54,367 bases of DNA, taken from the IMG/VR virus record IMGVR_UViG_2531839448_000005, positions 1 through 54,367 of that record, one strand, 5' to 3'. Positions 13,590 to 53,476 of this stretch are shown piece after piece. Below the pieces are notes generated by a model, which saw nothing but the letters and a program-made list of their open reading frames with translations, was not told the origin of the DNA and made no database searches. This stretch comes from a virus (lineage: Duplodnaviria; Heunggongvirae; Uroviricota; Caudoviricetes). How positions within the stretch are numbered: the first letter of the stretch is position 1; the number at the start of each line of letters is the position of its first letter. The position numbers were made by a program, and so were the translations under genes.

Positions 13590-14795
13590 TTACGCCGCTG
13601 CAATCTTCAGCAGTTTGATGGCCTGCGAATCGACCAGCATGCCGCCGGTGCGCTTGGTGGTATAAAAACCGACAAACGGTTTATTGGTGTACGGGTCACG
13701 CAGAATGCGGGTACCGATACGGTCAACGATGGTGTAACCCCGTTTGAAGTTACCAAATGCAATGGCTTTCGCATCAGCGGCAATATCCGGCATCTGTTCG
13801 TTTTCAGCGATAGCGTAACCCGCCAGAGAGGACGGCTGCCCCAGCTCCAGCCCCGGACGCCACAGATAGTTACCCTCACTGTCTTTCAGCAGACGGATGG
13901 CAAACAGACTGTTGTTGTTCATCATGAACTTCGCGCCAGTGCGGTGTGCCTTACGCAGCGTGTAAATCAGTTTGATAATGGCATCTGCGGTCACCGCCGT
14001 CGCTTCGCCGGATACAATATGCTGAAGTTTGCCGAACGCCCGGACCTTGTCTGTTTCATCCGTGGACTCATACGCCAGGAACCCTTTCGGCTTCTTGGTA
14101 CCATCGCCGGTGGTAAAGGCAATTTCTTCCTGTTCGGCAAATTCGGTTGCCAGCTCGCTGTTGATCCATGCTTCCACGTTGAAAAAGGCATCATCCAGCA
14201 TTTTCTGGGTGGCCTGCGGGTTACCGTAGATTTCCCCCATGAAAGGTTCAATCAGGCCCAGTTTTGAGGTGGCAGTCTGGGAGCGCGCGTCAGTCTCGCC
14301 AACCCATCCGGAAGCCGTGCCGCCCAGATTCACCAGTTTTTTGTAGTCGGAACCACCAACGCTGATCACCGTGGCTTCCTGGCGCATCACCACTTCATCT
14401 TTCAGCAGGGTGAGAATGTTGCGATCCAGTGCTTCCGGCACGGCATAGCCGCCGTCTTCATCGGTGCCCACCTGTAATGCCTTGCGCTCCAGATCGCGCA
14501 GACCATCTTCACGGCCTTTACGCAGGAAGCCCACAAACGCTTCTTTATGCTCGGTGGCCAGTTTATTTTGCGCACCACCTGCCGGACGTTTCAGCTCAAG
14601 CAGCTCTTTTTCAAGATCGCTTTTGAGGTTTTCCAGCTCGCTGAGTTTCCCGTTCAGGGTTTCCACCTGCCCGGCAAGTTTGCCTTTTTCCTGCTCAATC
14701 GCATCCACGCGCTTGTCGTTCTTTGCTTTGAAGTCGTCAAACTTCTGCTGCAGCTCCTGCGCGACCTGTTCGACATCTTTAATATCAACCGCCAT
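13590..14795 (-). CDS. major capsid protein, HK97 family
   Basis: 401 aa; N-terminal coiled-coil delta domain; motifs TGDGTKKPKGFLAY and DSQAIK. Confidence 0.85.
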   Translation of the reverse strand: MAVDIKDVEQVAQELQQKFDDFKAKNDKRVDAIEQEKGKLAGQVETLNGKLSELENLKSDLEKELLELKRPAGGAQNKLATEHKEAFVGFLRKGREDGLRDLERKALQVGTDEDGGYAVPEALDRNILTLLKDEVVMRQEATVISVGGSDYKKLVNLGGTASGWVGETDARSQTATSKLGLIEPFMGEIYGNPQATQKMLDDAFFNVEAWINSELATEFAEQEEIAFTTGDGTKKPKGFLAYESTDETDKVRAFGKLQHIVSGEATAVTADAIIKLIYTLRKAHRTGAKFMMNNNSLFAIRLLKDSEGNYLWRPGLELGQPSSLAGYAIAENEQMPDIAADAKAIAFGNFKRGYTIVDRIGTRILRDPYTNKPFVGFYTTKRTGGMLVDSQAIKLLKIAAA

Positions 14796-14809: not shown

Positions 14810-15496
14810 TTAGAAGTTTAGATTTTTCAGTGCATTCAGTGCAGAGCCCACATCCTCAGCGTCGCGCAGGGACAGTGCGCCATAGCCCCCGGCCATGAAT
14901 GCTTTGGCCTGGGTACGGGAGAGTCCGACATCACGCAGGACTCTTTCGATTTTTTTCTGTTCGGGGATTTCCCCGCGGGCCAGTGCGTTCTTGACGTCGC
15001 TGATCCGCGCCTCGTCGTTAGACGGGAACGTCACCAGGCTGACTTCCCAGAGGTCGATTTCTTTCAGCAGAAAGGCTTCTTTGCTCCGGTCGTATTCCCA
15101 GTCTTTCAGGACGTACCCAATAGAAAGGCCGGTTAACGAACCGGCCTTCATGTGTGCATGTGCGCGTTTTGCGAGGGGATCATCATCAATAAGCAACCGT
15201 CCCCTGACGTAAAGCCCGACATCGTCTTCCTTCATTTCGGTGTAAACACCGATGGGTTCATCCATGCGGTGCTGCCAGAGCAGCGCAGGTAACGCTTTTC
15301 TGTCACTCCACGCCCGCAGTGAAGCAGCAAATGCCCCGGACATCACCACATCATCGTGGCTGTCCTTTACACCAAAGACGGAGCCATACCCTTCAAACTC
15401 ACCGGAGTCACTGACAGATTTCAGACTCAGCGGTACATCAAGACGTTGTTTCGTCTGCATTGGCGTTATCCTTCTGCTTACCGGCTTTACTGCCAT
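14810..15496 (-). CDS. prohead protease (HK97 family)
   Basis: 228 aa ORF between portal and capsid genes. Confidence 0.7.
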   Translation of the reverse strand: MAVKPVSRRITPMQTKQRLDVPLSLKSVSDSGEFEGYGSVFGVKDSHDDVVMSGAFAASLRAWSDRKALPALLWQHRMDEPIGVYTEMKEDDVGLYVRGRLLIDDDPLAKRAHAHMKAGSLTGLSIGYVLKDWEYDRSKEAFLLKEIDLWEVSLVTFPSNDEARISDVKNALARGEIPEQKKIERVLRDVGLSRTQAKAFMAGGYGALSLRDAEDVGSALNALKNLNF

Positions 15497-16872: not shown

Positions 16873-17609
16873 TTAAAGCGAACGGATGCCCACGCTGACC
16901 AGATGTTCAGACAGATCCAGCTCCGGTTCACCACCATTGACCAGCATCCGGCTCATTGCTGTAAACATCGCAACAGGGCCGTCGATTTTGGCTTCCAGCG
17001 TGGATTTATTCGGGAAGATATTGTCGTTTTTGTCCGGTTTTACCGTAACGTTAGACATCATCCAGTTCATGACCGGATGATTGCTGTGATGGAAACGCCC
17101 GGCATAGACCAGTGATTCCGTTTCCTTCATGGCCTCTGACAGATTGCGAACCGTCTGCGGAACCTCCACCAGCGGTATCCCTTCTTCAGCCAGTGCCAGG
17201 CTGAACTGCATCGCGCTCCACGGGTCAAATCCCAGTTCCCTGAGGTTTTCACCACCAATCCATTCCAGTAAGTCACTTTTTATCTGAGCATGATCGATAA
17301 CATCACCATCCGTCAGAATCAGCTTATCCATCTCCGCCCACTTCCGGTAAAGTTCTGCCTGCTGCCGCGAGCATCGTTCCAGCCGTCCTTCCGGAAGCCA
17401 GAATTTAAAATCGGCATGAACATGCCCGTTATCCGTTCGCCAGAGTTTTGCCGCCGCACAGATATCAATCTTATGAGCAAGGTCAACGCCGACCCACATG
17501 GGATACGTTTTCAGCTCATGTCGTGGGGCAATGTATTCGCACTTCTCCCACTTAATCATGTCCATCCAGGCAGACTCTGCTGTTACCCACACATTCATGT
17601 GTTTGGTAA
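16873..17609 (-). pseudogene. terL: terminase large subunit, C-terminal (nuclease) fragment of the resident prophage; separated from its 5' part by the 15 kb insertion
   Basis: ORF begins MNVWVTAESAW and aligns to the C-terminal third of the intact island terL (shared WxxSNV and KPNK motifs); in-frame stop lies immediately upstream inside the island. Confidence 0.85.
17603..17609. repeat. left junction core TTGGTAA (direct repeat with 32655-32661)
   Basis: identical 7 bp at both insertion junctions; flanks join to an in-frame terL. Confidence 0.6.
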
Positions 17610-18125: not shown

Positions 18126-19787
18126 TTACACACCATCAAACGTCGCAAGCCGCTCTTTGTGGCTGTCGCTCATATCGAATGCAAATTCCTCATGCTCTGC
18201 CTGGAATGTGCCAAACGCCATCAGCGCCGCAACGCTCGGGTCTATCTTGTTGGATGATTTTTTCTTGTTCGGCTTGATATTGGCGTTCGCGTCACTCTGC
18301 ATCACAACATTACTCATTGACCAGGCCAGCACCGGATCACCACGATGCACAATCACCTTCCGGTTAACAAAAACTTCGAACGATTTCGCCGCCGGACTGA
18401 AACGAAGGTACGTTTGCGGGAACGGCTCCACCTCAAATCCCGCCCCCTGTAGCTGTGTTCTCAGGTGAGTGGCGTTCCATGTATCGAAGCCCACCAGCCT
18501 GATACTGAAATTCTCTGCATCCACCATGATGTCATCACGGATACGGTCATAATCAATGCAGTCACCCGGTGTTGTGCGTATCCAGCCCGCCTTTACCCAC
18601 TGGCGATAAATGGCGCGGTTTTTATTGGCGGGGTTCTGTAACTGAAATTCCGGCAGATAGTGACGGGAAACCAGCATAATCTTTTTACCGACCGGAAAGG
18701 CATAGCACACGCTGGAAATATCGCTGGTTGATGATAAGTCCAGCCCCACGTAGCACTCCTGCCCGTATAAATCCGCCTCCGCGAACGTTCCGGCGCACTC
18801 CGCCCATGCACCGTTACCCATCCACGGCGTAGCCCCCTGACACCAGATATTGAATCGCTTGGTGAGCATTTCCACCCACTGCGACGGAATACCCCGCGCT
18901 TTCTGGATGGTTGAGGCCAGTTTTTCACGATCGACGGAAACATCGATATTGGGATTCGCCTTTATCCACATCGCCGGATCGTCAACCTCGCTTTCATCAT
19001 CCAGCTCGTAAATCAGTACGAACATGGATTCGTTCACCTCTTCACCATCCAGTATCTGGCAGCAATAGTCGTAGTGTTGTTTACAGGCTGAAACAACGTT
19101 GCTCCCCGATGTGGTGATGGCAAATAATAACCCCTCCGGACGCGCCCCCATTCCCAGTTCAAGCGCGGAATAAACCCCGTTGTCAGGGTGCAGGTGATAT
19201 TCATCTACAATGGCAAGACTCGGGTTTGTACCTTCAATGGTTGCCGCTTTTGCTGCCAGTGGCTTTAACAGGCTGTTGGTTTTCGGGTGTATCACCTTGT
19301 GTGCCTGAATATTTACCCGCTTTCGTAACGGTCGGGATAAAAGGCACATCTGACGCGCATCATCAAACACGATCCGCGCCTGATCACGACTCACGGCGGC
19401 GGTGTAAATATCCTGCTGCCCGTTTTCCATAACCAGAAACCAGTTAGCCAGGATAGCGGCGACCGTGGATTTGGCATTTTTTCGCGGTACTTCAATGAAT
19501 GCGCTGGTGTATTTGCGCCGTCCGGTGGCCTTAACCTTAAAGCCCAGGATGCACGCAAAGGCGAACTGCTGCCACGGCTCCAGCTCAATGGGGCTACCGC
19601 GCATTGCGCCTTTTACGTGCGGACACACCCTGGAAAAGGCAATAAACCGCTCCACGACCTCCGGATCGAACGTGTAAAGGGGGTTTTCAAGGTCAGAAAA
19701 ATACCGTTTAACGGCCTGTTTCAGTCGTTTACAGGCCGTAATTTTGCCGTTTTTTACGCCTTCTGCGTACTCATGCCAGGCGGTCAA
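18126..19787 (-). CDS. terL: terminase large subunit (island-encoded, intact)
   Basis: 553 aa; ATPase and nuclease regions homologous to the split resident terL. Confidence 0.85.
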   Translation of the reverse strand: MTAWHEYAEGVKNGKITACKRLKQAVKRYFSDLENPLYTFDPEVVERFIAFSRVCPHVKGAMRGSPIELEPWQQFAFACILGFKVKATGRRKYTSAFIEVPRKNAKSTVAAILANWFLVMENGQQDIYTAAVSRDQARIVFDDARQMCLLSRPLRKRVNIQAHKVIHPKTNSLLKPLAAKAATIEGTNPSLAIVDEYHLHPDNGVYSALELGMGARPEGLLFAITTSGSNVVSACKQHYDYCCQILDGEEVNESMFVLIYELDDESEVDDPAMWIKANPNIDVSVDREKLASTIQKARGIPSQWVEMLTKRFNIWCQGATPWMGNGAWAECAGTFAEADLYGQECYVGLDLSSTSDISSVCYAFPVGKKIMLVSRHYLPEFQLQNPANKNRAIYRQWVKAGWIRTTPGDCIDYDRIRDDIMVDAENFSIRLVGFDTWNATHLRTQLQGAGFEVEPFPQTYLRFSPAAKSFEVFVNRKVIVHRGDPVLAWSMSNVVMQSDANANIKPNKKKSSNKIDPSVAALMAFGTFQAEHEEFAFDMSDSHKERLATFDGV

Positions 19788-20856: not shown

Positions 20857-21155
20857 CAGTACACCCCTACATCACGATAAACCGACCAGAGCGCAGAAAT
20901 AGCCATAGGCAGTTCAGACTGCTCCACAGGTGAAACCGCTTCCCTGTTCTCGTACAGGAAAGCGATGTACATCAGGCAACCAACACGTATTGCCGGGGTA
21001 AATTCCAGCCCGTCTTCAAAACGTTTCCCGATATGCTTCTGGCAGGCTTCCAGCGCCGCATCGGTATACATTTTCAGAAGTTCGCCCTCACCTGAGAAGT
21101 CATCAAGGCGAAGATGTGCCCTGACTTCATCAGGTGTAATTTTTTCTTCACTCAT
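20856..21155 (-). CDS. head-tail connector protein (gp6-like)
   Basis: start MSEEKITPDEV; about 100 aa; similar in outline to the resident connector. Confidence 0.55.
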   Translation of the reverse strand: MSEEKITPDEVRAHLRLDDFSGEGELLKMYTDAALEACQKHIGKRFEDGLEFTPAIRVGCLMYIAFLYENREAVSPVEQSELPMAISALWSVYRDVGVY

Positions 21156-22362
21156 CTTTTTCACCTTTAATTTCCACCGTCTGCTTCCATGCCTGGCTGA
21201 ACTCGTCACCACCTTCACGCGGCGGCATCCCCTCACGTTCGCGGGCTTCGTTCGGATTCATGATCCCGTTCTTAATCCCTTTCTCATACGTGGCGTAACG
21301 CTCGGTTGGAGTAGCGCGCAGTAAATCGGCTGAATCAAACTCAACCAGATAACGGGTACCAGGTATGGGAGAAGCCACCAGCAAAGCGGCCTTAATTTGC
21401 TGTTCGAAGTTCGCCAGCCATGGGCGCATTGTCATGGTCAGAAACGCGCGGCTTGCCTCACTGAAATTGCTGTAGGTGCTGTTGCTGTATTCCTGAAGAA
21501 AAATCGGCGACACGTTGAACATCCGGGCGATGTCTTCAATGGAGAAGCGACGGGAGGCCAGCCATTCTGCATCCTGGTTACTCATCCCCAGTTGCTTGTA
21601 ATCCATACCCCCTTCAAGGATTGGCGTTTTTCCGGCATTTTTCGCCCCCTTGTAGCGTTCCAGGGCGTCTAATGCCTGTTTACCTTTCACGCCGTCCAGC
21701 CATTCGCCTGACGTGATAATCCCTGCCGCCATCATGCCATCTTTCATAATGCTGGCTCCGTGACGCTGTTGAGCAAGGCCAAGCCCCAGCGCCTCACGGC
21801 AAATCGTGACAGGGGAGCGCCCCAGAAAGCCATCATCCGAGGCATAGCGGAGATGCAGAACTTCTTCCTGCAAATACGTGCGCACCGTTCCTGTATAGGG
21901 TTCGGTGATGGTATAGCGGTATTTGTGTGCGCCAGTGCGTTCCGGTACAACACACCCCGGCGCATAAGGATGAAGTGATTTTGGCTGACCGTCCCGCCCC
22001 CACTCAATAACCGCATAGGCGTTACCGTTCAGCAGGCAGTGACGCATCATTGTGCGTTTAAACTGGTAAGGTGTCTGGCACGAATTAGGCTGCTCATTCA
22101 GCAGAATATCGACCGGGTGACTGTCCAGCCATTCCCGCGCCTCCCTGCCCTTGTCATTGCGTACCAGATACAGATAACACGGCATCGTGGCCACCGCCTC
22201 AGCGATGACAGAAACCGCGTTCATCACAGCAGGCAATGATTCAGCCGTCCCGGCAGAAACATATTCTCCGGATCCGGTATTCGGTACGCCGGACAGCGCC
22301 AGAAAATCATCAATGGACAGGTTACGCAGATCGCTTTTTTTACGACTAAAAGGCCACCACAT
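21148..22362 (-). CDS. portal protein
   Basis: about 405 aa from MWWPFSRKK; pattern resembles the resident portal. Confidence 0.75.
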   Translation of the reverse strand: MWWPFSRKKSDLRNLSIDDFLALSGVPNTGSGEYVSAGTAESLPAVMNAVSVIAEAVATMPCYLYLVRNDKGREAREWLDSHPVDILLNEQPNSCQTPYQFKRTMMRHCLLNGNAYAVIEWGRDGQPKSLHPYAPGCVVPERTGAHKYRYTITEPYTGTVRTYLQEEVLHLRYASDDGFLGRSPVTICREALGLGLAQQRHGASIMKDGMMAAGIITSGEWLDGVKGKQALDALERYKGAKNAGKTPILEGGMDYKQLGMSNQDAEWLASRRFSIEDIARMFNVSPIFLQEYSNSTYSNFSEASRAFLTMTMRPWLANFEQQIKAALLVASPIPGTRYLVEFDSADLLRATPTERYATYEKGIKNGIMNPNEAREREGMPPREGGDEFSQAWKQTVEIKGEKDE

Positions 22363-22363
22363 A

Positions 22364-22924
22364 TCACAACCCCGCCAGTTCAGCCCAGCGATGACGATTA
22401 TTTCCTGTCGGGCGTAATTCAGGGTGCTGTGCAAACAACGAACGGTGGGCAATCTCCACGCCGGATTCGGGATAAGCAGGCATCGACGTTATCGTGATTT
22501 CACGGAGTTCTGCGGCGGTAACAGTGCGCAGATACGGTTTTTGCGCGATATTCCACTCTTCGCATAATGCGCGAAAGCCAAAGCTCATTCCTGTAATGTC
22601 GCCACGCTCCACCAGCGTAAGCACATCTTTTCCAAGCTGGGTATCAGGCGGTGTCAGTTCAAAACGTAGCCCGGTGTTGTCCTCAGTCAGTACCAGTGTT
22701 CCGGATTTGGTGCGCCCCAGCAGTCGGGTATAGTCATGCTCATACAGGCAGCGCACATCATTACCCGCCGCCAGATAGTCAGCAAAAGCCCCCGGCGTGA
22801 ACTGTTCGCGGAATTCGTCCCAGATAATTTCTGAAAGGCTGTTCCAGCGAACGGCATACCCCACCAGCTTTTTATTGCTGGCGGTCAGTTCAGATGTGCG
22901 GATTTCAAAATCGGTGTTTTTCAT
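22364..22924 (-). CDS. prohead protease (HK97 / peptidase U35-like)
   Basis: 186 aa; GYAVRW, YEHD and GMSFGF motifs. Confidence 0.7.
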   Translation of the reverse strand: MKNTDFEIRTSELTASNKKLVGYAVRWNSLSEIIWDEFREQFTPGAFADYLAAGNDVRCLYEHDYTRLLGRTKSGTLVLTEDNTGLRFELTPPDTQLGKDVLTLVERGDITGMSFGFRALCEEWNIAQKPYLRTVTAAELREITITSMPAYPESGVEIAHRSLFAQHPELRPTGNNRHRWAELAGL

Positions 22925-22978: not shown

Positions 22979-24148
22979 CTAGCCAGCTTTCATTTCCAGA
23001 ATTTTGATGGCGTTTGAATCCACCACACCACCGCCCAGATATTTATCCGTGTGGACCTTGTAGAATCCGGGTTCAGTAATGTTGTCCGGTCGGGTGCGAA
23101 TCCCTGTTACATGATCAACGATGAAATAACCACGACTGAAATCGCCAACCGCTAGCGGTGCTTTTCCTGCGCCGATGTCCGGCATGGACTCCAGGCAGAA
23201 AACAGGACGACCAAGCAACATATCCGGCGCACCTTCTTTAAGGCTGTCGCGCCAGATATAATCGCCATTCTCATTTTTCAGCTTCTGTAGTGTCCCTGCC
23301 GTGCCCGAGTTCATCACCCAGACGGCATTTTTGCGGTATTTCGCTTTCAGCTTGTAGAGAATGTCGATCAGTTCGTCCGCTGTAATGGCGGTTCCACTTG
23401 CCGCTACCACTTTTTCAATGGTGCCAAAAGCGCGGGTTTTGTCACTGGTCGCCGCACGGGTGTAAGCCATGAAGCCTTTCGGCTTGCCGTTACCGTCGCC
23501 ATTAACAAAATCATCCTCTTCGGTGCTGGCGAACGTGTCGGCAATTTCGGAGGATAACCAGCCCAGAATATCCACCTCTGAAAAATCCAGGATTTCCTGC
23601 GTGGTTTTCGGGTAGGCGTAGATCGGATTCAGCTTGATGGTTACACGTTCAATTTTCGGGGTGTTGGTTTCACTACGTGCGCTGCCTTCTGTGCCTCGTC
23701 CTACAGTTGCGCCGCCAGTGGAAACCAGTTTCTGAAACTCATTTGATTTTGCGGTCTTCACGGTCGCGATCACGCGCATAACACTGTCATCCTGTAGCTG
23801 GCGCATGACTTCGCGATCAAGCTCAGGAATTACGGTATATCCGCCATCCCTGCCGCTGTCAGTGCTGGTGGACAGTGATCGCACATCTCCGGTTACGATG
23901 TAGTTACGCAATTCATCAGATGATAATTTCTGGATGCCCGTTCCTGGCTTGCTGCGTTCTTCATCAGCCACAGACTCGAGGCGGTAAATTTCTGTGTCGA
24001 GGGAATCGGCTTTTGCACGCAGTTCATCAAACTGTTTGCCCTCGTCATCGTTCAGGCTGCGGTTTTCACTGTCGGCTTTTTCCAGCAGGGATCGCATCTG
24101 GTTTTTCAGGGCGGTTTTTTGCTGGCGGAGTTCGATTAATTTCTTCAT
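22979..24148 (-). CDS. major capsid protein, HK97 family
   Basis: 389 aa; coiled-coil N-terminus; GDGNGKPKGFMAY and DSNAIK motifs parallel the resident capsid protein. Confidence 0.85.
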   Translation of the reverse strand: MKKLIELRQQKTALKNQMRSLLEKADSENRSLNDDEGKQFDELRAKADSLDTEIYRLESVADEERSKPGTGIQKLSSDELRNYIVTGDVRSLSTSTDSGRDGGYTVIPELDREVMRQLQDDSVMRVIATVKTAKSNEFQKLVSTGGATVGRGTEGSARSETNTPKIERVTIKLNPIYAYPKTTQEILDFSEVDILGWLSSEIADTFASTEEDDFVNGDGNGKPKGFMAYTRAATSDKTRAFGTIEKVVAASGTAITADELIDILYKLKAKYRKNAVWVMNSGTAGTLQKLKNENGDYIWRDSLKEGAPDMLLGRPVFCLESMPDIGAGKAPLAVGDFSRGYFIVDHVTGIRTRPDNITEPGFYKVHTDKYLGGGVVDSNAIKILEMKAG

Positions 24149-24422: not shown

Positions 24423-24671
24423 TTATTGTTTCACTGGATCCCGCATTCTGCGTCTTATTTTCCACAGATATTCGATCATCGCTTCCACCTGCTCACGATT
24501 GGTTGCGAAAATTTCCCCGGTCAGTGAGCTGCGCAGAAAATCATGATGATCCACAACAAACAACGCATCGGAAGAAAGCAGACGGCGATATTTTTTTGCT
24601 GTCGTGGTTTCCAGATCATCAAAACCATGAAACTTTTTATGTTGCTGGACTTCTTCAAATGTCACTGGCAT
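24423..24671 (-). CDS. hypothetical protein
   Basis: 82 aa ORF. Confidence 0.35.
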   Translation of the reverse strand: MPVTFEEVQQHKKFHGFDDLETTTAKKYRRLLSSDALFVVDHHDFLRSSLTGEIFATNREQVEAMIEYLWKIRRRMRDPVKQ

Positions 24672-25204
24672 GTATCCCCCTTTGCCGCCCGGCGCTGGCG
24701 CTTGTGCTTCTCATTCAGCGCCATCAGCCGCGTTTCTGCCTCCTGCTGTTCCTGTGGTGTCACTTCCCCACATGGCTGGCCTTTCAGGTCGTATCGTACC
24801 CCACCAGCAACCAGGGCGCGGTAATAGCGCGGAGACTGCGCATAAGATGCCAGCGTCGCACGTAATGCCCCCGGCCCGAATGCCAGCCCCCTGACGGCGA
24901 GATCCTGCATCAGGTCGTCGAATATCCCCACCTTAAGCGGCTTCGGTGCTTCCCTGTTGAATAAGTCAGGCCACATCTCAGTGAGGCGGTTAACGCGCCT
25001 GCGGTTTTTGCGCTGGCGTTTGGTCATATGCCGCCACGGTGTCACCCCTGTGGGCTGCCCTTTGCGGCTCTGCTGTGCGTTCTGATTGCCGGGTATCACT
25101 TTATGCGCCGATGTGGTTTTATCCCGCTCTTGCGCCGCCTGCGTCGTTTTCTGCGGCGTGCCGTAAATGCCTTTCGGTTTTCGGTTAATGGTCAGCTTTG
25201 TCAT
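24662..25204 (-). CDS. ProQ/FinO-domain RNA-binding protein
   Basis: LKVGIFDDL...ALRATLASYAQSPRYYRALVAGGVRYDLKGQPCGEVT aligns by eye to the E. coli ProQ N-terminal domain as recalled. Confidence 0.6.
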   Translation of the reverse strand: MTKLTINRKPKGIYGTPQKTTQAAQERDKTTSAHKVIPGNQNAQQSRKGQPTGVTPWRHMTKRQRKNRRRVNRLTEMWPDLFNREAPKPLKVGIFDDLMQDLAVRGLAFGPGALRATLASYAQSPRYYRALVAGGVRYDLKGQPCGEVTPQEQQEAETRLMALNEKHKRQRRAAKGDTCQ

Positions 25205-25875: not shown

Positions 25876-27999
25876 TTAATCTTCTGCCTCAGGCTGGAAC
25901 ATCAGCACGTAAAAAACATGCTGCTTCCCCCCAATTTTGCCGAGCGCCTTTTTCTTGTAACGGCGATCGTTACCCGCTTCCAGCATTCCGGCAGCACTCA
26001 ACGCGCGGGCAAAGTGAGACGGATTAAATCCCTGTGCTATCTCACCCTCAAATACATGCGGGAACGTGTAAAAACGGAACTCGTCATCTTCGTTTCTGAT
26101 ACTCCCCTTTCTGTATCCGGCAAGTTCTTTAATCGATAAATCACGCTCGTCGGTATTGGGCCACGGAAGGTATCTGCTGAATCCGAACGACGCTAAAAAA
26201 GCTTCTGCCTGTTCAACCATCTGTTTAAATTCCCTGTTACCCGTGCCGAACTCCTTCACCCAGGCATTAAAATTATGCTGTATGGCATCGCGGCATTCCT
26301 GCTCATCCCAGCCAGTAACATGACCTGAAAGCACAAGCGCGGCCTCCAGTATGGCAAATCGCTCCCCCACACGGTGAACCTGTTCGCCGTAGCTCTCCGG
26401 TATCAGGTTGCGCCACCGCTCACGGCATGTCCTTACCGTGTCCTTTGCCTCCTGCTGGTGTTCTGCCAGCCATTTAACCCACTCACGACCCGCCGCCCCG
26501 TGATTTTCTGTCCAGGCATCCTTTAACGCGTCTGCGTGCGCCTTTCCGGTGCTGTATTCGTGAAATTGCGTGGCTTTTTCCATCGGAACGTTAAGCAGGC
26601 GGACAAGCTGCCCCGCTTTGACTTTTATCCCCTCCGTTTTGAGGAATGTCTCAACGTCCATTTCTCCGGTGCTGATTGCCACCGTGCGCCAGTGTTTGAT
26701 CTCCCTGTTGCCGCCGTCCTTCGCCCCCTGTAATTTCCCCGAACCGTTAAACAGCGTATAGGCTGACGTGGACACCTCCCGCGCGTTTCCGGCCTGGCCT
26801 ATTTCATCCAGGGGTAAAAGCCCGTCATTGTGTGCCTCTGCTTCGTTGGCGATACCTAACGCTGTGCCGTACCAGGTCAGCCGCTGCGCGTCCGGCTCTC
26901 CCCATAAACTTGATGCGATGTTCTGTGTGGTGGTTTTCCCTGCCGATGACTGTTCGAAAAGATGTACCCCGAAGCCGTCAGCGCCCACCAGCCCGATTAA
27001 TGGTGCGGATAACGATACCGCCACACCCAGCATCATGGACGGATTACCACCAGCCAGCCGCGCAACGGTATCGCGCCAGCCCTCCGCCGTTCCTGCCACG
27101 GAATAGCCATTAACAGCAGCCGTTTTTCCGGTAAACAGGACTGGCTTTTCGCAATCACCAATGACCGAACCGTCCGGCATGATGTACGCGCCAAAATGCC
27201 AGCCCGTTGTTGTGCTTAACTGCCATTCCTCATGGCTTCCGCTTAACTGCATCCAGTCAGCCAGGATAGCCCTGTATTTACCGTTGGTTGTTACGTTCAG
27301 TCCGTGGTCTTTCAGCAACCGCCAGCCGTCACGGTCGCCAATGCCACCGCACGGAACCGCCATTGTGATGACTTCATGGTTTGCTAATTTTTTCCAGCGC
27401 ATCACGCGGTAATGCTCTTTACCGATTGTCCCCGTTCCCAGTAGTTCAAGCGGGGAACATAACCACGTCTCAGGCCGGATAATTTCGCCTGACTGCTTAT
27501 CCACTTTTGGCGTTACCCAGAAAACACCATCGGCGCGACTTTCAACGCGGGGCTTTAATTCATCATCGCCCTGGATTTCTGTGATTTTTTTCTTTAAGGG
27601 CAACACCAGACTTTCCCCGCGCTCGTATTCGTCTTTGAGGCGAGGCAACTGGTCGGATAAATCCGCCGGGCTGATGTCAGTTATCCCCGCGTATTCGTAT
27701 ACGGTCTTCACGCCAGCCACAGCCAGCAACGTGACGATCTGTGTAAGGCTACGTTCAGTGATGTGCCCTGCGCGGTAAACACGCACACACTGACGGCTAT
27801 CATCAATAATTTGATAACCGGTAATATCTTTCAGGTGTTCATCTGACAGAACGACAGGCGGCACATTGTCGGCGGCAATATGCTTACCTGCCCATTCCTG
27901 CCACTCTTTCGCATGGCTCCACGCATCACTACCCGCAAAGATGATAACCTCCGTCATTTTGTCGGCTGGCTGGTGCTTTAAGTTTGGTGCGCGCTTCAT
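25876..27999 (-). CDS. primase / replication protein (P4 alpha-like, DUF927-type)
   Basis: 707 aa; central Walker-like GEPDAQ...SSAGKTT region; adjacent iterons. Confidence 0.6.
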   Translation of the reverse strand: MKRAPNLKHQPADKMTEVIIFAGSDAWSHAKEWQEWAGKHIAADNVPPVVLSDEHLKDITGYQIIDDSRQCVRVYRAGHITERSLTQIVTLLAVAGVKTVYEYAGITDISPADLSDQLPRLKDEYERGESLVLPLKKKITEIQGDDELKPRVESRADGVFWVTPKVDKQSGEIIRPETWLCSPLELLGTGTIGKEHYRVMRWKKLANHEVITMAVPCGGIGDRDGWRLLKDHGLNVTTNGKYRAILADWMQLSGSHEEWQLSTTTGWHFGAYIMPDGSVIGDCEKPVLFTGKTAAVNGYSVAGTAEGWRDTVARLAGGNPSMMLGVAVSLSAPLIGLVGADGFGVHLFEQSSAGKTTTQNIASSLWGEPDAQRLTWYGTALGIANEAEAHNDGLLPLDEIGQAGNAREVSTSAYTLFNGSGKLQGAKDGGNREIKHWRTVAISTGEMDVETFLKTEGIKVKAGQLVRLLNVPMEKATQFHEYSTGKAHADALKDAWTENHGAAGREWVKWLAEHQQEAKDTVRTCRERWRNLIPESYGEQVHRVGERFAILEAALVLSGHVTGWDEQECRDAIQHNFNAWVKEFGTGNREFKQMVEQAEAFLASFGFSRYLPWPNTDERDLSIKELAGYRKGSIRNEDDEFRFYTFPHVFEGEIAQGFNPSHFARALSAAGMLEAGNDRRYKKKALGKIGGKQHVFYVLMFQPEAED

Positions 28000-31329: not shown

Positions 31330-32483
31330 TCATAGCTTCTTTTTTCTGTCCATATACTGGCTTCTGTTATAAACCCCGGCAACACCGCCTAATGTGTGCC
31401 CAAGCAACTGTTCAACCACATTATGTTCAAAACCATGATCACTTAGTTTTGTGGCAAACACTCTTCGCATATCATGCGCCGTCCATTTCTCCGAGTGTTT
31501 CATCCTTTTCCATGTCTTACCGATAGTTACGCTTGCCGTACACTGACGCATATCAAACCCAATCACATTTTCTTTGTTACCTGTTATTTTTTTAACGTAA
31601 CTAACCAGTTAAACATGCCATCAGGAATCGGTCTGATTATTTCCCTGCCATTTTTGCTATGATCAGCGGGAACGCGCCATAATTTCTTATCAAAATCCCA
31701 CTCTACCCAGGACGACAGTAATACTTCTGACAGTCGACAACCAAAAACTACCAGGAAACGTAAAATAATTCGGTTTTCATATGATAATTCGTGATTGTCA
31801 TAATCAGTATTAATACTTCGCCATAAATCTCTGATTTCATCATCTGTTAAAACCCTGCTTCTTCGCGCAGACTTTTTTCCCACATCACAGACCTCAAGAT
31901 CATCAATTTCATGACTAATCGCGTATTTTCTTACCCTACAAAATTTAAGCGCCTGTTTTGATATACGCAACAAAGCTCCGGCCTGTACAGGTGCTACTTT
32001 TTTTATTTTGTCAAAACACTTAATCCACATAGATATAGAGCAATCACTAAGTGGTACATGACCAATCACCGGATAAATATGTTTACCAAAGCACTGCCTG
32101 ATATGTTCTGCTCCCCTACGCTTATCCATTGCATAATTATCAAGCCAGTATTCAAGTGCCTCACGAACGGTAACAGGTTGCAAGGTGGCTTCCCGTTCAA
32201 TTTTTATCTGAATCCGTGGATCTCTGCCCTCCGCAAGCCAGGTTCGACACTGATCGCGCATCTCTCTCGCTGATTTGAGACTCAGATCAGGATATTTTCC
32301 AAGTGTCAGCCAGATGGGCGCGGTTCCCCTTCCCGCCAGTCTGTAAAAGAAAACAAAACTAACACATCCGTATTTACTGACCCGTACCGAAAGCCCGTTA
32401 CCATCAGCGATGGTTTCCTGCCTCTCACTCCTGCGCCCAAGCAGGGAACGAAGTTTTTTATCGCTCAGTTTGTTTAGCGCCAT
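31330..32483 (-). pseudogene. int: tyrosine integrase (P4-like), frame-broken at an A7 tract near 31580-31590
   Basis: 311 aa N-terminal ORF plus 78 aa C-terminal ORF carrying HxxR...Y catalytic region (HDMRRVFAT...GVYNRSQY); adding one A rejoins the frames. Confidence 0.8.
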
Positions 32484-32503
32484 GTGATTTATAACCCGTT
32501 TTT

Positions 32504-32524
32504 GCAATACACAGTGCAATACAC
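32504..32524. repeat. tandem GCAATACAC arm-type repeat (copy 2)
   Basis: GCAATACACAGTGCAATACAC just upstream of the int start. Confidence 0.5.
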
Positions 32525-32654
32525 AAATGATGAAAACAGCCAGAACCTTCCAGAAAAAACAAAAACGACGAACAAGAAAAAATCTTTTTCTTTCATTTGG
32601 TTACTAAAAAAATCAGGACAGGTCGCACTGTTGTTACGGCGTGATGTTACTTTC

Positions 32655-32661
32655 TTGGTAA
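32655..32661. repeat. right junction core TTGGTAA
   Basis: direct repeat of 17603-17609. Confidence 0.6.
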
Positions 32662-33682
32662 AAAAATTCACCCGCGCAGAGACCTGTTCTTTCGCTTTTT
32701 TCGCCAGGCGACGCAGATCATCCCAGCGTTTACAGATGCCCAGGCCGGGATTCGCTTTCTGCCAGACCGTTTCATCAAACGGATCATCTCCCTCATCGAG
32801 GGTGTAAATAATCGCAAAGTAGGAGTCGTCTTTTACAGCGCCCTCCACATCGCTGTTATAGCCACGCAATACCTTGATGGCGTAATCACGCTGCTCGTAA
32901 CAAATCCCTTCCTTGTTAAACCCTGCCGTGGTGATACCAAATAACAGGGACTGCAGGCGGGCACCGGTTGCCGTTTCCAGAACGTCCCACACGTCGCGGG
33001 TTTTATGTGCATGCAGCTCATCAATAATGGCGCAGTGGATGTTCAGACCATCCAGGTTGTTTGCATCCGAGGAAAGCGGTTCAAATTTTGATGCGCTCTG
33101 CTCCTGGTAAATCGCCAGCTTGTTGAAATCAAACAACCGCCCGAGTGTCGACCGGGCTTTTCTGACCATATTTTTGGCGTCTTCAAACACAATTCTGGCC
33201 TGGTCACGCGTGGTGGCGGCTGAATACACCTCAGCACCGCCTTCACCATCTGCCCCCGTCATATACAGGCCGATACCCGATGACAGAGTTGATTTTGCGT
33301 TTTTACGGGCGACTTCGTTGTACGCCGTCCGGAACCGGCGCACCATCACCGGACGTCCGCTGCCATCGCTGCGCATGACAACTTCCCCGGTCTCTTCATT
33401 CACCAGCGGAATGACAAAACCAAAAATATTAATGAGGATAAATACATGCCAGTCCATCAGTTCAATGGGCTGGCCTGCCAGCGCCCCTTTTACATGAGGC
33501 ACAAATTTGTAGAAATTCAGGATGTGCTGCGCACGGGGTTCACTGAAATAAATCCCCCGCTCTTCGCCGTACTTCAGATCATCAAGAAAACGCTGGCAGG
33601 CCAAGCGGACAAATTCGCCAGCAACAATTTCTCCTGCAACAACACGTTCGGCGTAGCGGATCCCGTCAGCCACTTTTGCCAT
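32655..33682 (-). pseudogene. terL: terminase large subunit, N-terminal (ATPase) fragment of the resident prophage
   Basis: ORF reads terL-like sequence to ...ARVNFFTKK then 53 unrelated codons inside the island; Walker-type motifs present. Confidence 0.85.
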
Positions 33683-34164
33683 CAGTCTCTCGCTTTTAAA
33701 AGCTCCGCCAGCGGATCAACATCATCCGGTCCGGCGATATTTACTTTAGCCCGGCTTGCCGGTGACATACCAAACTCTGCAAGCATTGCCCGGATCCGCT
33801 TCCAGGCATCCGCTTTCATTGCCGCCGCGGGGTGCGCCTTAATCAGTACATCACCGCTCTGCGTTTCCGTGCGGTAGGTATACCCCTCAACATCGAGTGT
33901 TTCGCAGTGATGCCGATATTCGGTGTAGGCTTCCACCAGCAACTCGAGCGCACGCGCATCAAGCTGAGAAATGATCCCTTCCGCATTCAGCTCTTCCGCC
34001 ATTCGCCTGAACCAGTACTTCCCCTGAGCCCCTAAATGCTGCGGAATTTTAGGAAGACCTTTTTCATCCTTTTTAGCGGTTTTTTTGTGGTCTTTAACGG
34101 GGCGCTTTGAGGGGTTGCCTCGAATCAAATGCAGGCGTGGCGGGGTTTTCGGAGGTCCTGACAT
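33682..34164 (-). CDS. terS: terminase small subunit (P27-like)
   Basis: 160 aa ORF directly upstream of terL. Confidence 0.7.
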   Translation of the reverse strand: MSGPPKTPPRLHLIRGNPSKRPVKDHKKTAKKDEKGLPKIPQHLGAQGKYWFRRMAEELNAEGIISQLDARALELLVEAYTEYRHHCETLDVEGYTYRTETQSGDVLIKAHPAAAMKADAWKRIRAMLAEFGMSPASRAKVNIAGPDDVDPLAELLKARD

Positions 34165-34312
34165 AATCGGTCTTACCTATCAATCGTTTGTTCACATTTC
34201 CAAAAAAAAGTTTTCGAACCTGCGGCGATGTGAGGAAGGGTCAGGCGGCGGTACTGAGCAGCCAGGGCGGCAGAGATTTGCCCCGCCCCTCCCCTACAGA
34301 TGAGAACTGTTA

Positions 34313-34663
34313 TCAATTGATGCGTTCGCGCGCTGTTTTTGCTTTATGGCAGGGCCAGCACAGACTCTGCAGGTTACTGTCTGCATCCGTGCCACCATGA
34401 GCTTTCGGAATGATGTGGTCCACAGTTCTGGCTTCAACAGCTCTCCCATTGCGCAGGCAGTTCTGACACAGATGATTATCACGCTTCAGTATGCGCGCAC
34501 GTATGGCATCCCATTTCGAGCCATAGCCACGCTGGTGGCGGCTCAGTCCGCGCTGGTGCTGCACCCAGCCTTCACCCCAATGTTTATCGCAGTAGCCCGA
34601 ACTGTCTGTTGTTGTGCCTGCGCAGCCTCGCTTACGACATGCGCGGGGGATTCGTGATGGCAT
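34313..34663 (-). CDS. HNH endonuclease
   Basis: CxxC pairs plus DHIIPKAHGG...CWPCH motif. Confidence 0.8.
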   Translation of the reverse strand: MPSRIPRACRKRGCAGTTTDSSGYCDKHWGEGWVQHQRGLSRHQRGYGSKWDAIRARILKRDNHLCQNCLRNGRAVEARTVDHIIPKAHGGTDADSNLQSLCWPCHKAKTARERIN

Positions 34664-35054
34664 GGAACTTCGTTCTCCAGCGATTAAAACGTTTCTCTCT
34701 CGGGGATAACATGTATTGCATTCAGTCCCGCCGCCACAGCGTGCTGATTATGTTCATTGACAAGCTGCATTGTTTCATCAAGCAATTCACGACAGCGATT
34801 TGCATTCGTTTCGATGCTCAGCACCAGTGAATGACCCCCACACAACCGCCCATCCAATAAAAATGGAGAGTCAGCAGAAACAATTTCCGATTTTATGGGG
34901 TCAGTTCAACGGAAGGGCTGCTGTAATGCTGTGGACAATACTCCTTTTGTCGCTTACTGGTTGAATATCCTGGTTTTTATGCGCTTTATCCATTGTTAAA
35001 ATACAACCTCAGCCCTCCAGTGTTCGGACACTGTGTGAACAATGAATAAGAGCC

Positions 35055-35294
35055 TTGGCTGACGGCTCCGCAAAAGGAATGACAATGACAAGCTTTAATA
35101 TAAATTTAAATGTAACAACAAAGGTTGAAACCATTTCTGACGTAGCTTTAGAAATTTCCCGTTTAAAAGTTACGATTGGAATATTATTGGCTAAACTACC
35201 TCCAGAACAGCGTGATTCATTCATTGCAGATCTAAAAGGCGTCGGGCTTAATGAAGAGGCCAGCTTATATAGTAATTTCAACCCAAAGATATAA
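35055..35294 (+). CDS. hypothetical protein (moron, opposite strand to the late operon)
   Basis: 79 aa ORF in an AT-rich tract with its own downstream terminator. Confidence 0.4.
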   Translation: MADGSAKGMTMTSFNINLNVTTKVETISDVALEISRLKVTIGILLAKLPPEQRDSFIADLKGVGLNEEASLYSNFNPKI

Positions 35295-35315
35295 TCTGAA
35301 TCCATCGTTTACAGG

Positions 35316-35348
35316 AGCGGGGAGGGAGCACCTCCCCCCTTTTCTTTA
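35316..35348 (+). terminator. rho-independent terminator
   Basis: GGGGAGGGAGCACCTCCCCCC hairpin followed by TTTT. Confidence 0.6.
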
Positions 35349-35532
35349 TTTGGTGTATGTAATATTTCCTTTTAAGTAAAACGCTCCCGTATTATCAAAT
35401 GCGCCCTCAGGTTTTTTATTGAGAATTTTTAATAATTTTGACTTCATAGCAATATTAAAAATCTTTGGGAAAAGAAACATATTTCCTCCTGAATAAATAT
35501 GCGAGGATGAATTGAGTTCACTTTATCTAACC

Positions 35533-35712
35533 TCACTGCATACACTGCCGGATGCCATCAATCAGTTGGCAGGCCTGAGAAGCAGCGTCAAAAAACTGGC
35601 GCGCCTTATCCAGGCTAACGCATCCCGCCAATAAAAAAGGCACCAGTATCGCTACCAGTGCCCATTTCGCCGCCGTTCGCGGCATTCTGTGTGTCCAGTG
35701 TTTTCTGCTCAT
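35533..35712 (-). CDS. lipoprotein, o-spanin-like (tentative)
   Basis: lipobox LLAGC after a hydrophobic signal; directly downstream of endolysin. Confidence 0.4.
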   Translation of the reverse strand: MSRKHWTHRMPRTAAKWALVAILVPFLLAGCVSLDKARQFFDAASQACQLIDGIRQCMQ

Positions 35713-35726
35713 AACACACCTGGTTA

Positions 35727-36110
35727 TCAGCGTTTCAACTGAAAGTGAGGCCCGTCTTTCAGTGTTTTCCAGTCCCCGCCCCATTCGATGGCAGTTCCCA
35801 GCTCTGCGGCAGCCTGCTTAAATGCCTGCGCGATTTTCTCGTACAGAGGCCAGTCCCATGACACCTGGCTGCCAATGTAGGCCACAACATCCACCGCATC
35901 ACCGGTCAGGTGGCGGCTGTTCATGGTCTGGCTTTTCCCTTCCGCGACCAGCTGTTTCTGGCGATACTTACTGCGCAGGCCTTCCGTAATACCGAAATCA
36001 ACCTCCGTCAGTTCCAGCGCACGGCGAACGACAGCAACCAGCTGTGGTTTGACGCCCTCCAGATTCTTTTCGCTGCGACGACTAAATCTGAATTTACCCG
36101 ACATACTCAC
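35727..36110 (-). CDS. endolysin, peptidase M15-type
   Basis: 127 aa; motif GLRSKYRQKQLVAEGKSQTMNSRHLTGDAVDV typical of M15 peptidoglycan peptidases. Confidence 0.7.
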   Translation of the reverse strand: MSMSGKFRFSRRSEKNLEGVKPQLVAVVRRALELTEVDFGITEGLRSKYRQKQLVAEGKSQTMNSRHLTGDAVDVVAYIGSQVSWDWPLYEKIAQAFKQAAAELGTAIEWGGDWKTLKDGPHFQLKR

Positions 36111-37419: not shown

Positions 37420-37494
<75 letters not shown>

Positions 37495-37497
37495 ATA

Positions 37498-37573
<76 letters not shown>

Positions 37574-37575
37574 AC

Positions 37576-37652
37576 TGGACCGCCACCGGGGACTCGAACC
37601 TCGCACACTCAACTTAAAGGGTTGACGCTCTTTCCTGATGAGCTAGTGGCGG
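37576..37652 (-). tRNA. tRNA-like, anticodon loop CCUUUAA (putative UUU/Lys, non-canonical C33)
   Basis: 77 nt; 7 bp acceptor stem, TTCGAGT T-loop, CCA end; one mismatch in the T stem. Confidence 0.45.
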
Positions 37653-37653
37653 C

Positions 37654-37729
37654 TGGTGGCCCTTGCTGGATTTGAACCAGCGACCTGGCGATTATGAGTC
37701 GCTCGCTCTCACCACTGAGCTAAAGGGCC
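37654..37729 (-). tRNA. tRNA-Ile2/Met (anticodon CAU), ileX/ileZ-like
   Basis: 76 nt cloverleaf, anticodon loop CUCAUAA, close to E. coli ileX as recalled. Confidence 0.8.
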
Positions 37730-53386: not shown

Positions 53387-53476
53387 TGGCGGAGAGAGGG
53401 GGATTTGAACCCCCGGTGGAGTTGCCCCCACTCCGGTTTTCGAGACCGGTCCGTTCAGCCGCTCCGGCATCTCTCC
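53387..53476 (-). tRNA. serU: tRNA-Ser (anticodon CGA)
   Basis: 90 nt with long variable arm, anticodon loop CUCGAAA, CCA encoded. Confidence 0.85.

Follow-up and report, generated by a model that had tools for sequence, protein, structure and literature searches.

A small open reading frame that runs against the late genes of a phiP27-like E. coli prophage raises the question of what it encodes, how it came to lie there and when it would be expressed. The window (the whole stretch of DNA analysed, 54,367 nucleotides) carries this prophage with its late genes all on the − strand. Read from right to left, they are arranged as Q and four tRNA genes, two holins, an endolysin, a lipoprotein, the region of the small gene, HNH, TerS and TerL. 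An initial annotation had interpreted the small gene as an opposite-strand moron of 79 residues, plausibly serving lysogenic conversion or anti-defence.

The antisense gene and its inserted segment

The open reading frame is present on the + strand (35055–35294, 79 residues counted from a TTG codon) and is antisense to every neighbouring gene, as annotated. Its 5′ end needs revision. The TTG at 35055 lies within the loop of a conserved leader hairpin (see below), and a Shine-Dalgarno sequence, AAGGA (35074–35078, +), is located 6 nt before an ATG at 35085, a spacing of 7–9 nt being seen in homologous cassettes. Judged from the sequence, the start codon is most likely ATG 35085 rather than TTG 35055, which gives a coding sequence of 69 residues (35085–35294, +; RefSeq WP_000200355.1). 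An ATG at 35079 (71 residues) is the start in database cluster P0001. The RefSeq annotation of strain ETEC1731 also places a 69-residue hypothetical protein at this locus, antisense to the late genes. An overlapping 98-residue frame on the − strand (35009–35305) has no family match or relatives in profile searches.

The gene sits between the lysis and packaging genes, the position that had been likened to that of lambda bor. On one side are an M15 endolysin (35727–36110, −) and a small lipoprotein-like gene (35533–35712, −) with a lipobox, LAGC, and a match to phrog_7528; on the other are an HNH endonuclease (34313–34663, −) and a P27-family TerS (33682–34164, −). The lipoprotein-like gene, 3′ of the endolysin, may be a spanin-type lysis component, and its coding sequence contains a terminator-like hairpin with a T-run on the same strand (35663–35638).

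A blastn comparison of window positions 34200–36110 with a sister phiP27-like prophage (L361) delimits the extra DNA. Window 34200–34675 corresponds to L361 301–776 and window 35536–36110 to L361 813–1387. The lipoprotein gene and HNH are separated by 36 bp in the sister prophage, compared to 860 bp in the window, and this 860-bp segment (34676–35535), which includes the small gene, has no counterpart there. In phiP27 itself, other genes occupy the site. The segment is compositionally distinct, with a GC content of 0.31–0.44 across the tract 34850–35530 versus 0.52–0.59 in the flanks. The coding sequence has a GC content of 0.338, compared to 0.537 and 0.534 for its flanks, in agreement with the AT-rich tract noted initially.

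Two further parts of the insert lie outside the gene. A 57-residue frame (34684–34857, −) matches only the C-terminal half of phrog_4827 (E 1.7e-14, profile positions 43–95 of 96) and appears, from this partial match, to be a truncated late-strand gene brought in with the insert but outside the moron unit. It was also considered as a homologue of phiP27 L33, which was rejected as the two have no homology. Between the gene's terminator and the lipoprotein gene is an AT-rich spacer (35349–35535, GC ∼0.31–0.40) in which no convincing gene was found; a 44-residue frame on its − strand (35346–35480) matches phrog_36389 weakly (E 0.062).

More than 1200 complete E. coli genomes match parts of 34200–36110, for the most part its flanking late genes, and the moron element is found in 18 of 5426. 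Positions 34700–35720 are 99–100% identical across 17 complete E. coli genomes from unrelated sources (ETEC1731, for example). Porcine ETEC and other animal isolates are among the host strains that carry the element.

Elsewhere in the window, the terL gene is split into an N-terminal part (32489–33682, −) and a C-terminal nuclease part (16873–17598, −). The ∼15-kb element between them encodes an integrase (31584–32519), Bro-N, a DUF927 primase-helicase (25876–27999), ProQ/FinO (24662–25204), an HK97-type capsid protein (22979–24148), a portal (21148–22452) and its own TerL (18126–19787), and looks like a capsid-forming PICI-type satellite inside the terminase gene of a helper-type prophage. 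ETEC1731 has the same prophage with terL intact. The four tRNA genes (37420–37729, −) occupy the Q-to-holin interval and are Gly-UCC, Thr-UGU, Lys-UUU and Met/Ile-CAU; phiP27 has tRNAs and stx2e at this position. A tRNA-Ser (CGA) gene close to the right end of the window (53387–53476, −) may be the prophage attachment site.

The encoded protein and its homologues

The match of the protein to phrog_6806 spans its entire length (E 2.6e-31). When 1.8 billion representative proteins were searched, its relatives fell into 8 clusters at 50% identity, and a profile search recovered 49 clusters at 90% identity, with lengths of 66–76 residues apart from a few longer gene calls. Identity falls to ∼32% among these homologues, whose named sources are all Enterobacterales, including the insect-associated Photorhabdus and Xenorhabdus, and whose named entries are all “hypothetical”. 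A motif with invariant residues, E-I-x-x-L-K-x-x-I-G...K-L-P...R, is conserved in the family. The initial annotation would have given up its reading in the absence of both transcription in lysogens and conservation elsewhere; conservation is found here in many genera. Additionally, comparison of the profile of the window protein with gp23 of phage HK022 (hhalign probability 96.7%, E 4.5e-10, 61 columns) identifies the two as distant homologues at the level of sequence.

These results bear on whether the frame could have arisen by chance or be what is left of a decaying gene in AT-rich junk DNA. Its surroundings do look degraded, with the truncated phrog_4827 gene adjoining and the geneless AT-rich spacer, and the element is rare in E. 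coli. That reading is largely refuted by the full-length match to a phage family with full-length homologues in many genera, by near-identity in the 17 genomes of unrelated source, and by a leader, Shine-Dalgarno sequence and terminator that are all intact. We regard it as barely credible: the sequence evidence argues that the small opposite-strand gene is a real coding gene.

An AlphaFold2 model based on a 49-sequence alignment (pLDDT 89.4) shows three helices (residues 19–38, 42–54 and 58–67) preceded by an extended arm at the N terminus, and the 69-residue product is predicted to be a soluble, cytoplasmic three-helix protein. As noted initially for the signal peptide, the sequence has no N-terminal hydrophobic segment; a lipobox and a transmembrane segment are likewise absent. 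The lambda gene bor, which the prophage expresses, is antisense to the late genes and lies between the lysis genes and cos/Nu1; it encodes an outer-membrane lipoprotein. The window gene shares its orientation and its site, and its hosts include porcine ETEC and other animal isolates, as might be expected of a bor-like lysogenic-conversion factor at the cell surface or of other virulence cargo. Such a role is nevertheless very improbable for a protein without signal peptide, lipobox, transmembrane segment or Pfam Bor match, which is predicted to form a soluble helical bundle and whose family extends across Enterobacterales to the insect-associated genera.

No match to the protein was found in Pfam or NCBIfam, no defence profile of PADLOC-DB matched it at E <= 1, and no PDB or fold match pointed to a function. 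The profile and structure searches proposed at the outset thus returned a family, phrog_6806, and the homology to HK022 gp23, but no match informative about function. Several apparent leads were discarded. PDB sequence matches to L-SIGN neck repeats, protein A and LRR proteins are artefactual and stem from short motifs that recur. An “LPPEQR” motif suggested region 4 of sigma-70 (Sigma70_r4_2, SigM), but the matches are sub-threshold (8 of 49 family members for Sigma70_r4_2, best E 0.016) and no sigma structure or sequence match followed; PDB sequence and fold searches with the protein returned neither sigma nor ribbon-helix-helix chains. A ribbon-helix-helix reading of the N-terminal strand was also rejected, as its polar face is variable and often acidic.

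The genomic contexts of the family, drawn from SW-37 and further homologue loci, are uniform in one respect: wherever a locus was examined, the homologue stands alone and is antisense to late genes. The sites themselves vary, being located before a P27-type TerS/HNH, before a lambda-type Nu1 or DUF1441 TerS, between tail genes L and M or beside the tape-measure gene. No neighbouring gene is conserved across these contexts. The unit is therefore autonomous, and it is unlikely to be half of a two-gene system, for instance one of toxin and antitoxin.

The promoter-leader module and its cargos

A putative promoter region was read from the sequence upstream of the gene (34953–35002, +). It comprises a conserved upstream box, CTTACTGGTTGAATATC (34953–34969, +), an extended −10 TG (34994–34995, +) and a putative sigma-70-type −10 hexamer, TAAAAT (34997–35002, +), with transcription predicted to start at ∼35009. 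The promoter search that the initial annotation had called for gave a divided result: a consensus promoter scanner made no call at the putative promoter because its −35 element is poor, and the promoter-like TGtTAAAAT (34994–35002) is recognizable by inspection. In 148 unique related cassettes, a TAnnnT hexamer (variants TAAGGT, TATGGT, TATGTT, TAATGT and TAAAGT) is conserved 6–7 nt 5′ of TCAGCC, and the upstream box is kept as ACTGTTTGAATATCAGG. This box, of the form CTG-N9-CAG, resembles what we take to be a LexA box, but with a spacing one base short. In most cassettes, although not in the window, it also fits what is presumably the IHF consensus, WATCARNNNNTTR.

At the other end of the unit is an intrinsic terminator (35313–35348, +), consisting of a stem (35319–35337) with six G-C pairs followed by CCTTTTCTTT. 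Its fold energy of −18.6 kcal/mol bears out the strong terminator described initially. It works in one direction only, because no T-run follows on the − strand. Of the 85 cassettes with full context, 62 have an intrinsic terminator on the − strand just 5′ of the reverse-moron promoter; the window is not among them. The position of this upstream terminator is conserved and its sequence varies; in HK97 (L160 2477–2499) it is labelled “putative terminator”.

Between promoter and gene is a structured 5′ leader of ∼76 nt (35009–35084, +), aligned with those of HK97 and HK022 among others (alignments A3 and A4). It begins with UCAGCC (35009–35014, +), followed by a hairpin, P2, with GGA in its loop (35018–35033, +), and a second hairpin, P3 (arms 35050–35054 and 35064–35068, loop 35055–35063, +). 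The P3 loop contains GGCUGA (35057–35062, +), the complement of the 5′ UCAGCC, with which it may form a third pairing, P1. Cassettes share the order of elements: the ACTGTTTGAATATCAGG box, TAnnnT, TCAGCC, P2, P3 with its GGCTGA loop, and the Shine-Dalgarno sequence AAGGA. The leader is conserved more strongly than the coding sequence. Over 45 pairwise comparisons, mean nucleotide identity is 70% for the leader, 62% for the promoter region, 61.5% for the coding sequence and ∼50% for the flanks, the last being the level of unrelated sequence. Long nucleotide blocks are common to the upstream regions of homologues whose proteins are just 30–55% identical.

The alignments provide evidence for base pairing. 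In a 41-sequence alignment, 96.6% of cells in P2 are paired and four of its eight pairs show double changes, with covariants that include CAGUG/CACUG, CAGCG/CGCUG and CCAUG/CAUGG. The outer pair of P3 varies among AU, GU, UA and GC, and alternative P3 stems occur (GAGCC/GGCUC in the window instead of CAGAGG/CCUCUG, and CCGAGG/CCUCGG in HK97). Frequent U.G pairs are sensible only for RNA of the + strand. The P1 pairing does not vary among the sequences, and no compensatory change was seen for it even without a constraint on the pairing; it is therefore kept as hypothetical. Folding relative to shuffled sequence gives modest support, with z-scores of −1.19 for the window leader (slightly better than shuffled) and −2.7 for that of locus L004.

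A covariance model finds a single copy in the window (35009–35086, 53 bits; the window sequence is in the training set) and further matches in genomes of Enterobacter, Pantoea, Dryocola, Xenorhabdus and Photorhabdus. It finds no copy in phiP27 or phi80. Nothing in Rfam reached threshold in window 34600–35600 or at the leader in 10 related loci, and our literature search, which was thin on subscription journals, found no published description of the shared leader. Two functional readings of leader motifs were rejected. CsrA sites, suggested by GGA in both hairpin loops (P2 and P3) and within the Shine-Dalgarno sequence, are inconsistent across members, and HK97 and the window are without some of them. 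The P3 loop reads AUGGCUGAUUACCUCUGA in ∼90% of leaders, creating a five-codon mini-ORF, MADYL*, but its AUG becomes ACG, AAG or AUA in some members and there is no usable Shine-Dalgarno spacing. In some cassettes, such as that of L014 and that of the window (as TTG), the mini-ORF codon is in frame with the main ORF.

The leader is not confined to one protein family. A pattern derived from it matches at least 120 viral contigs, and an ORF with a Shine-Dalgarno sequence lies directly behind it, at a conserved distance, in ∼115 of the 121 matches listed. Among these listed matches, the ORFs (“cargos”) form at least 20 clusters separable by BLAST, of 64–268 residues. Profile comparison between 20 cargo clusters revealed no links, and each cluster representative tested maps to a different PHROG, none of which has an assigned function. 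Proteins behind the leader include DUF1883 and a NucC-like PD-DExK nuclease (PADLOC E 2.7e-26). Conversely, some homologues of the window protein (L010, L023–L034) have other leaders, without a covariance-model match. Since family members occur behind different leaders, protein and leader are not obligately coupled and assort independently. In a subgroup of 68-residue proteins ending in “...FVVE” (among L023–L034, L010 and L029), the upstream region retains only the AUGGCUGAUCA block.

Orientation is constant with respect to late genes. Among the matches listed, 326 of 369 neighbouring long ORFs are on the opposite strand, and the identified late-gene neighbours of the ∼115 listed cassettes are all antisense. 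The commonest sites in this set are gpM/gpL (26), next to HNH as in the window (20), TMP/J (10) and gpI/gpJ (9). For the 85 cassettes with full context, mean cargo GC is 0.40 versus 0.51–0.54 in the flanks, and composition differs in 82 of them. The hosts are temperate phages of E. coli, Salmonella, Enterobacter, Cronobacter, Pantoea, Xenorhabdus and Photorhabdus; outside Enterobacterales, a DNA-pattern scan of genome contigs was dominated by chance matches. Some prophages contain two leader-bearing cassettes (L113, 314–373 and 4438–4498; L208, 1431–1490 and 2419–2479), and Photorhabdus temperata has two leader copies ∼1 kb apart.

Could the RNA rather than the protein be the product? The transcript might regulate the phage itself, controlling read-through from lysis to packaging genes, or act as an antisense or sponge RNA like STnc6030, with the ORF secondary. 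A leader conserved above the coding sequence with a covarying helix, unrelated ORFs behind that common leader, and the − strand terminator that accompanies 62 of 85 cassettes would all suit such a role, for which prophage antisense RNAs that exclude superinfecting phages are a precedent (PMC7067206). We nevertheless consider it decidedly unlikely. A Shine-Dalgarno sequence and start codon stand at a conserved distance in ∼115 of 121 listed matches, the amino-acid sequence is conserved with invariant residues down to ∼32% identity, and the predicted transcript in the window is antisense to its own insert alone and to no conserved late gene.

We propose, at slightly less than even odds, that the promoter and the ∼76-nt leader (UCAGCC, P2, P3/GGCUGA and Shine-Dalgarno sequence) constitute an undescribed cis-regulatory RNA and expression platform. 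This 5′ module would have been recombined onto unrelated small cargos, always antisense in the late operons of Enterobacterales lambdoid prophages, and would give them a common control, on in the lysogen, off in the lytic cycle and possibly factor-responsive, with the window gene as one cargo. The leader probably sets mRNA stability or translation, and may provide homology for cargo exchange.

On its own, the gene is just another uncharacterised prophage moron, and it is the shared module that gives it value. A partly covarying promoter-leader module on many unrelated cargos is the result most worth following. The leader offers a sequence handle for the systematic finding of prophage cargo genes, many of them probably involved in phage-phage or phage-host conflict, and a defined RNA element with testable helices for moron regulation and cargo exchange. 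The cargo set defines concrete small proteins that can be screened for a phenotype in exclusion or defence.

Proposed expression logic and relation to known reverse morons

The anatomy of the unit, its insertion, its homology to gene 23, the sharing of the module by at least 20 cargo families and the antisense orientation are observed features. The extra DNA relative to the sister prophage, the foreign GC content, the terminator and the kinship with the gene-23 units of HK97 and HK022 uphold the original identification as an opposite-strand moron, and the unit is very probably a reverse moron of the gene-23 type. As a whole, we favor a self-contained antisense unit in a phiP27-like late operon that would be expressed in the lysogen and silenced by late transcription, to which we assign a probability of about 60%.

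The proposed mechanism is as follows. In the lysogen, the moron would be transcribed from its putative own promoter. Q-antiterminated late transcription would cross the unit in reverse, and polymerase collision together with sense/antisense pairing would switch the moron off. The small protein would thus act in the lysogenic state only and, while virions are being made, could harm late functions of the phage or simply serve no purpose. This lysogen-on/lytic-off logic, drawn by analogy with phi80 taiEcA and the noncontiguous operons of S. aureus phages, is probable. As for function, the product would most likely inhibit another protein by binding to it, as a superinfection exclusion or anti-phage factor; we offer a defence or exclusion role as a tentative guess.

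Anti-defence, one of the two roles suggested in the initial annotation, would place expression in the infection phase. On that view, the unit is an accessory with a constitutive promoter, on at DNA entry or at induction, and the antisense site merely insulates it from late control. The small, fast-evolving, cytoplasmic helical product is typical of phage inhibitors, the terminator and promoter-like element of its own are as expected, and very diverse cargo families are what an arms race would give. Anti-defence genes usually sit in early operons, and late neighbours that are antisense throughout would shut the gene off at the peak of late transcription. Additionally, the NucC-like nuclease found behind the leader belongs with effectors and not with inhibitors. 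The invariable antisense placement is easier to reconcile with a gene expressed in the lysogen than with an anti-defence gene of the infection phase, which we consider unlikely.

Several characterized systems resemble the lysogen-expressed unit proposed here. One is the noncontiguous TaiEcA/AtiEcA operon of phi80, in which a prophage gene is also antisense in the late operon between lysis and packaging genes. Lysogens of phi80 express taiEcA from within the Q operon, on the opposing strand, and Q expression lowers its level (PMC11364771); S. aureus phage noncontiguous operons behave similarly (PMC11087260). The phi80 proteins have no sequence similarity to the window protein, and phi80 lacks the leader. 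Kinship was rejected on an hhalign probability of 0.15% against AtiEcA and on E values above 0.2 when the cargo set was searched by BLAST with Tai and Ati. No counter-defence gene adjoining the moron was identified in the window.

Another similar case, the HK97 gp15 moron, is a small late-region product that is expressed from the prophage and excludes other phages (PMC3594210). Its location is the inner membrane, and its sequence is unrelated to that of the predicted soluble protein of the window. STnc6030 of Salmonella prophage BTP1 is a lysogen-expressed RNA, antisense to late genes, that mediates superinfection exclusion (PMC7067206). It is non-coding and overlaps real late genes, whereas the window unit codes for a conserved protein and overlaps none.

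Sequence kinship links the unit to gene 23 of HK97 and HK022. The promoter and leader of locus L004 match HK97 14995–15105 and HK022 13978–14100 in blastn, directly 5′ of gene 23, which is labelled in GenBank as “reverse moron product” in HK97 and as “srb protein; moron gene product” in HK022. Nothing published on “srb” or on the function of HK97 or HK022 gp23 was found in our literature search, with its thin coverage of subscription journals. In these phages, gp23 overlaps the late-strand forward moron gp22 tail to tail (in HK97, L160 2769–3131, −, and 2631–2891, +); the two genes converge, and their transcripts would be antisense to each other.

The window unit and HK97/HK022 gene 23 are both antisense single-gene units in a late operon with a homologous promoter and leader, and these classic reverse morons belong among the module-bearing cassettes. 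They differ in location, as gene 23 lies between tail genes I and J and the window unit between the lysis cassette and HNH/terS. They also differ in boundaries, since terminators flank the gene-23 unit in the HK97 annotation, whereas the window lacks the upstream − strand terminator. With respect to cargo, HK022 gp23 is the homologue of the window protein and HK97 gp23 belongs to an unrelated family. Juhala et al. (2000; cited in PMC3594210) reportedly annotated HK97 and HK022 and gave the first definition of morons. As gene 23 of these phages carries a homologous module, the window element belongs to a kind that was recognised when morons were first defined.
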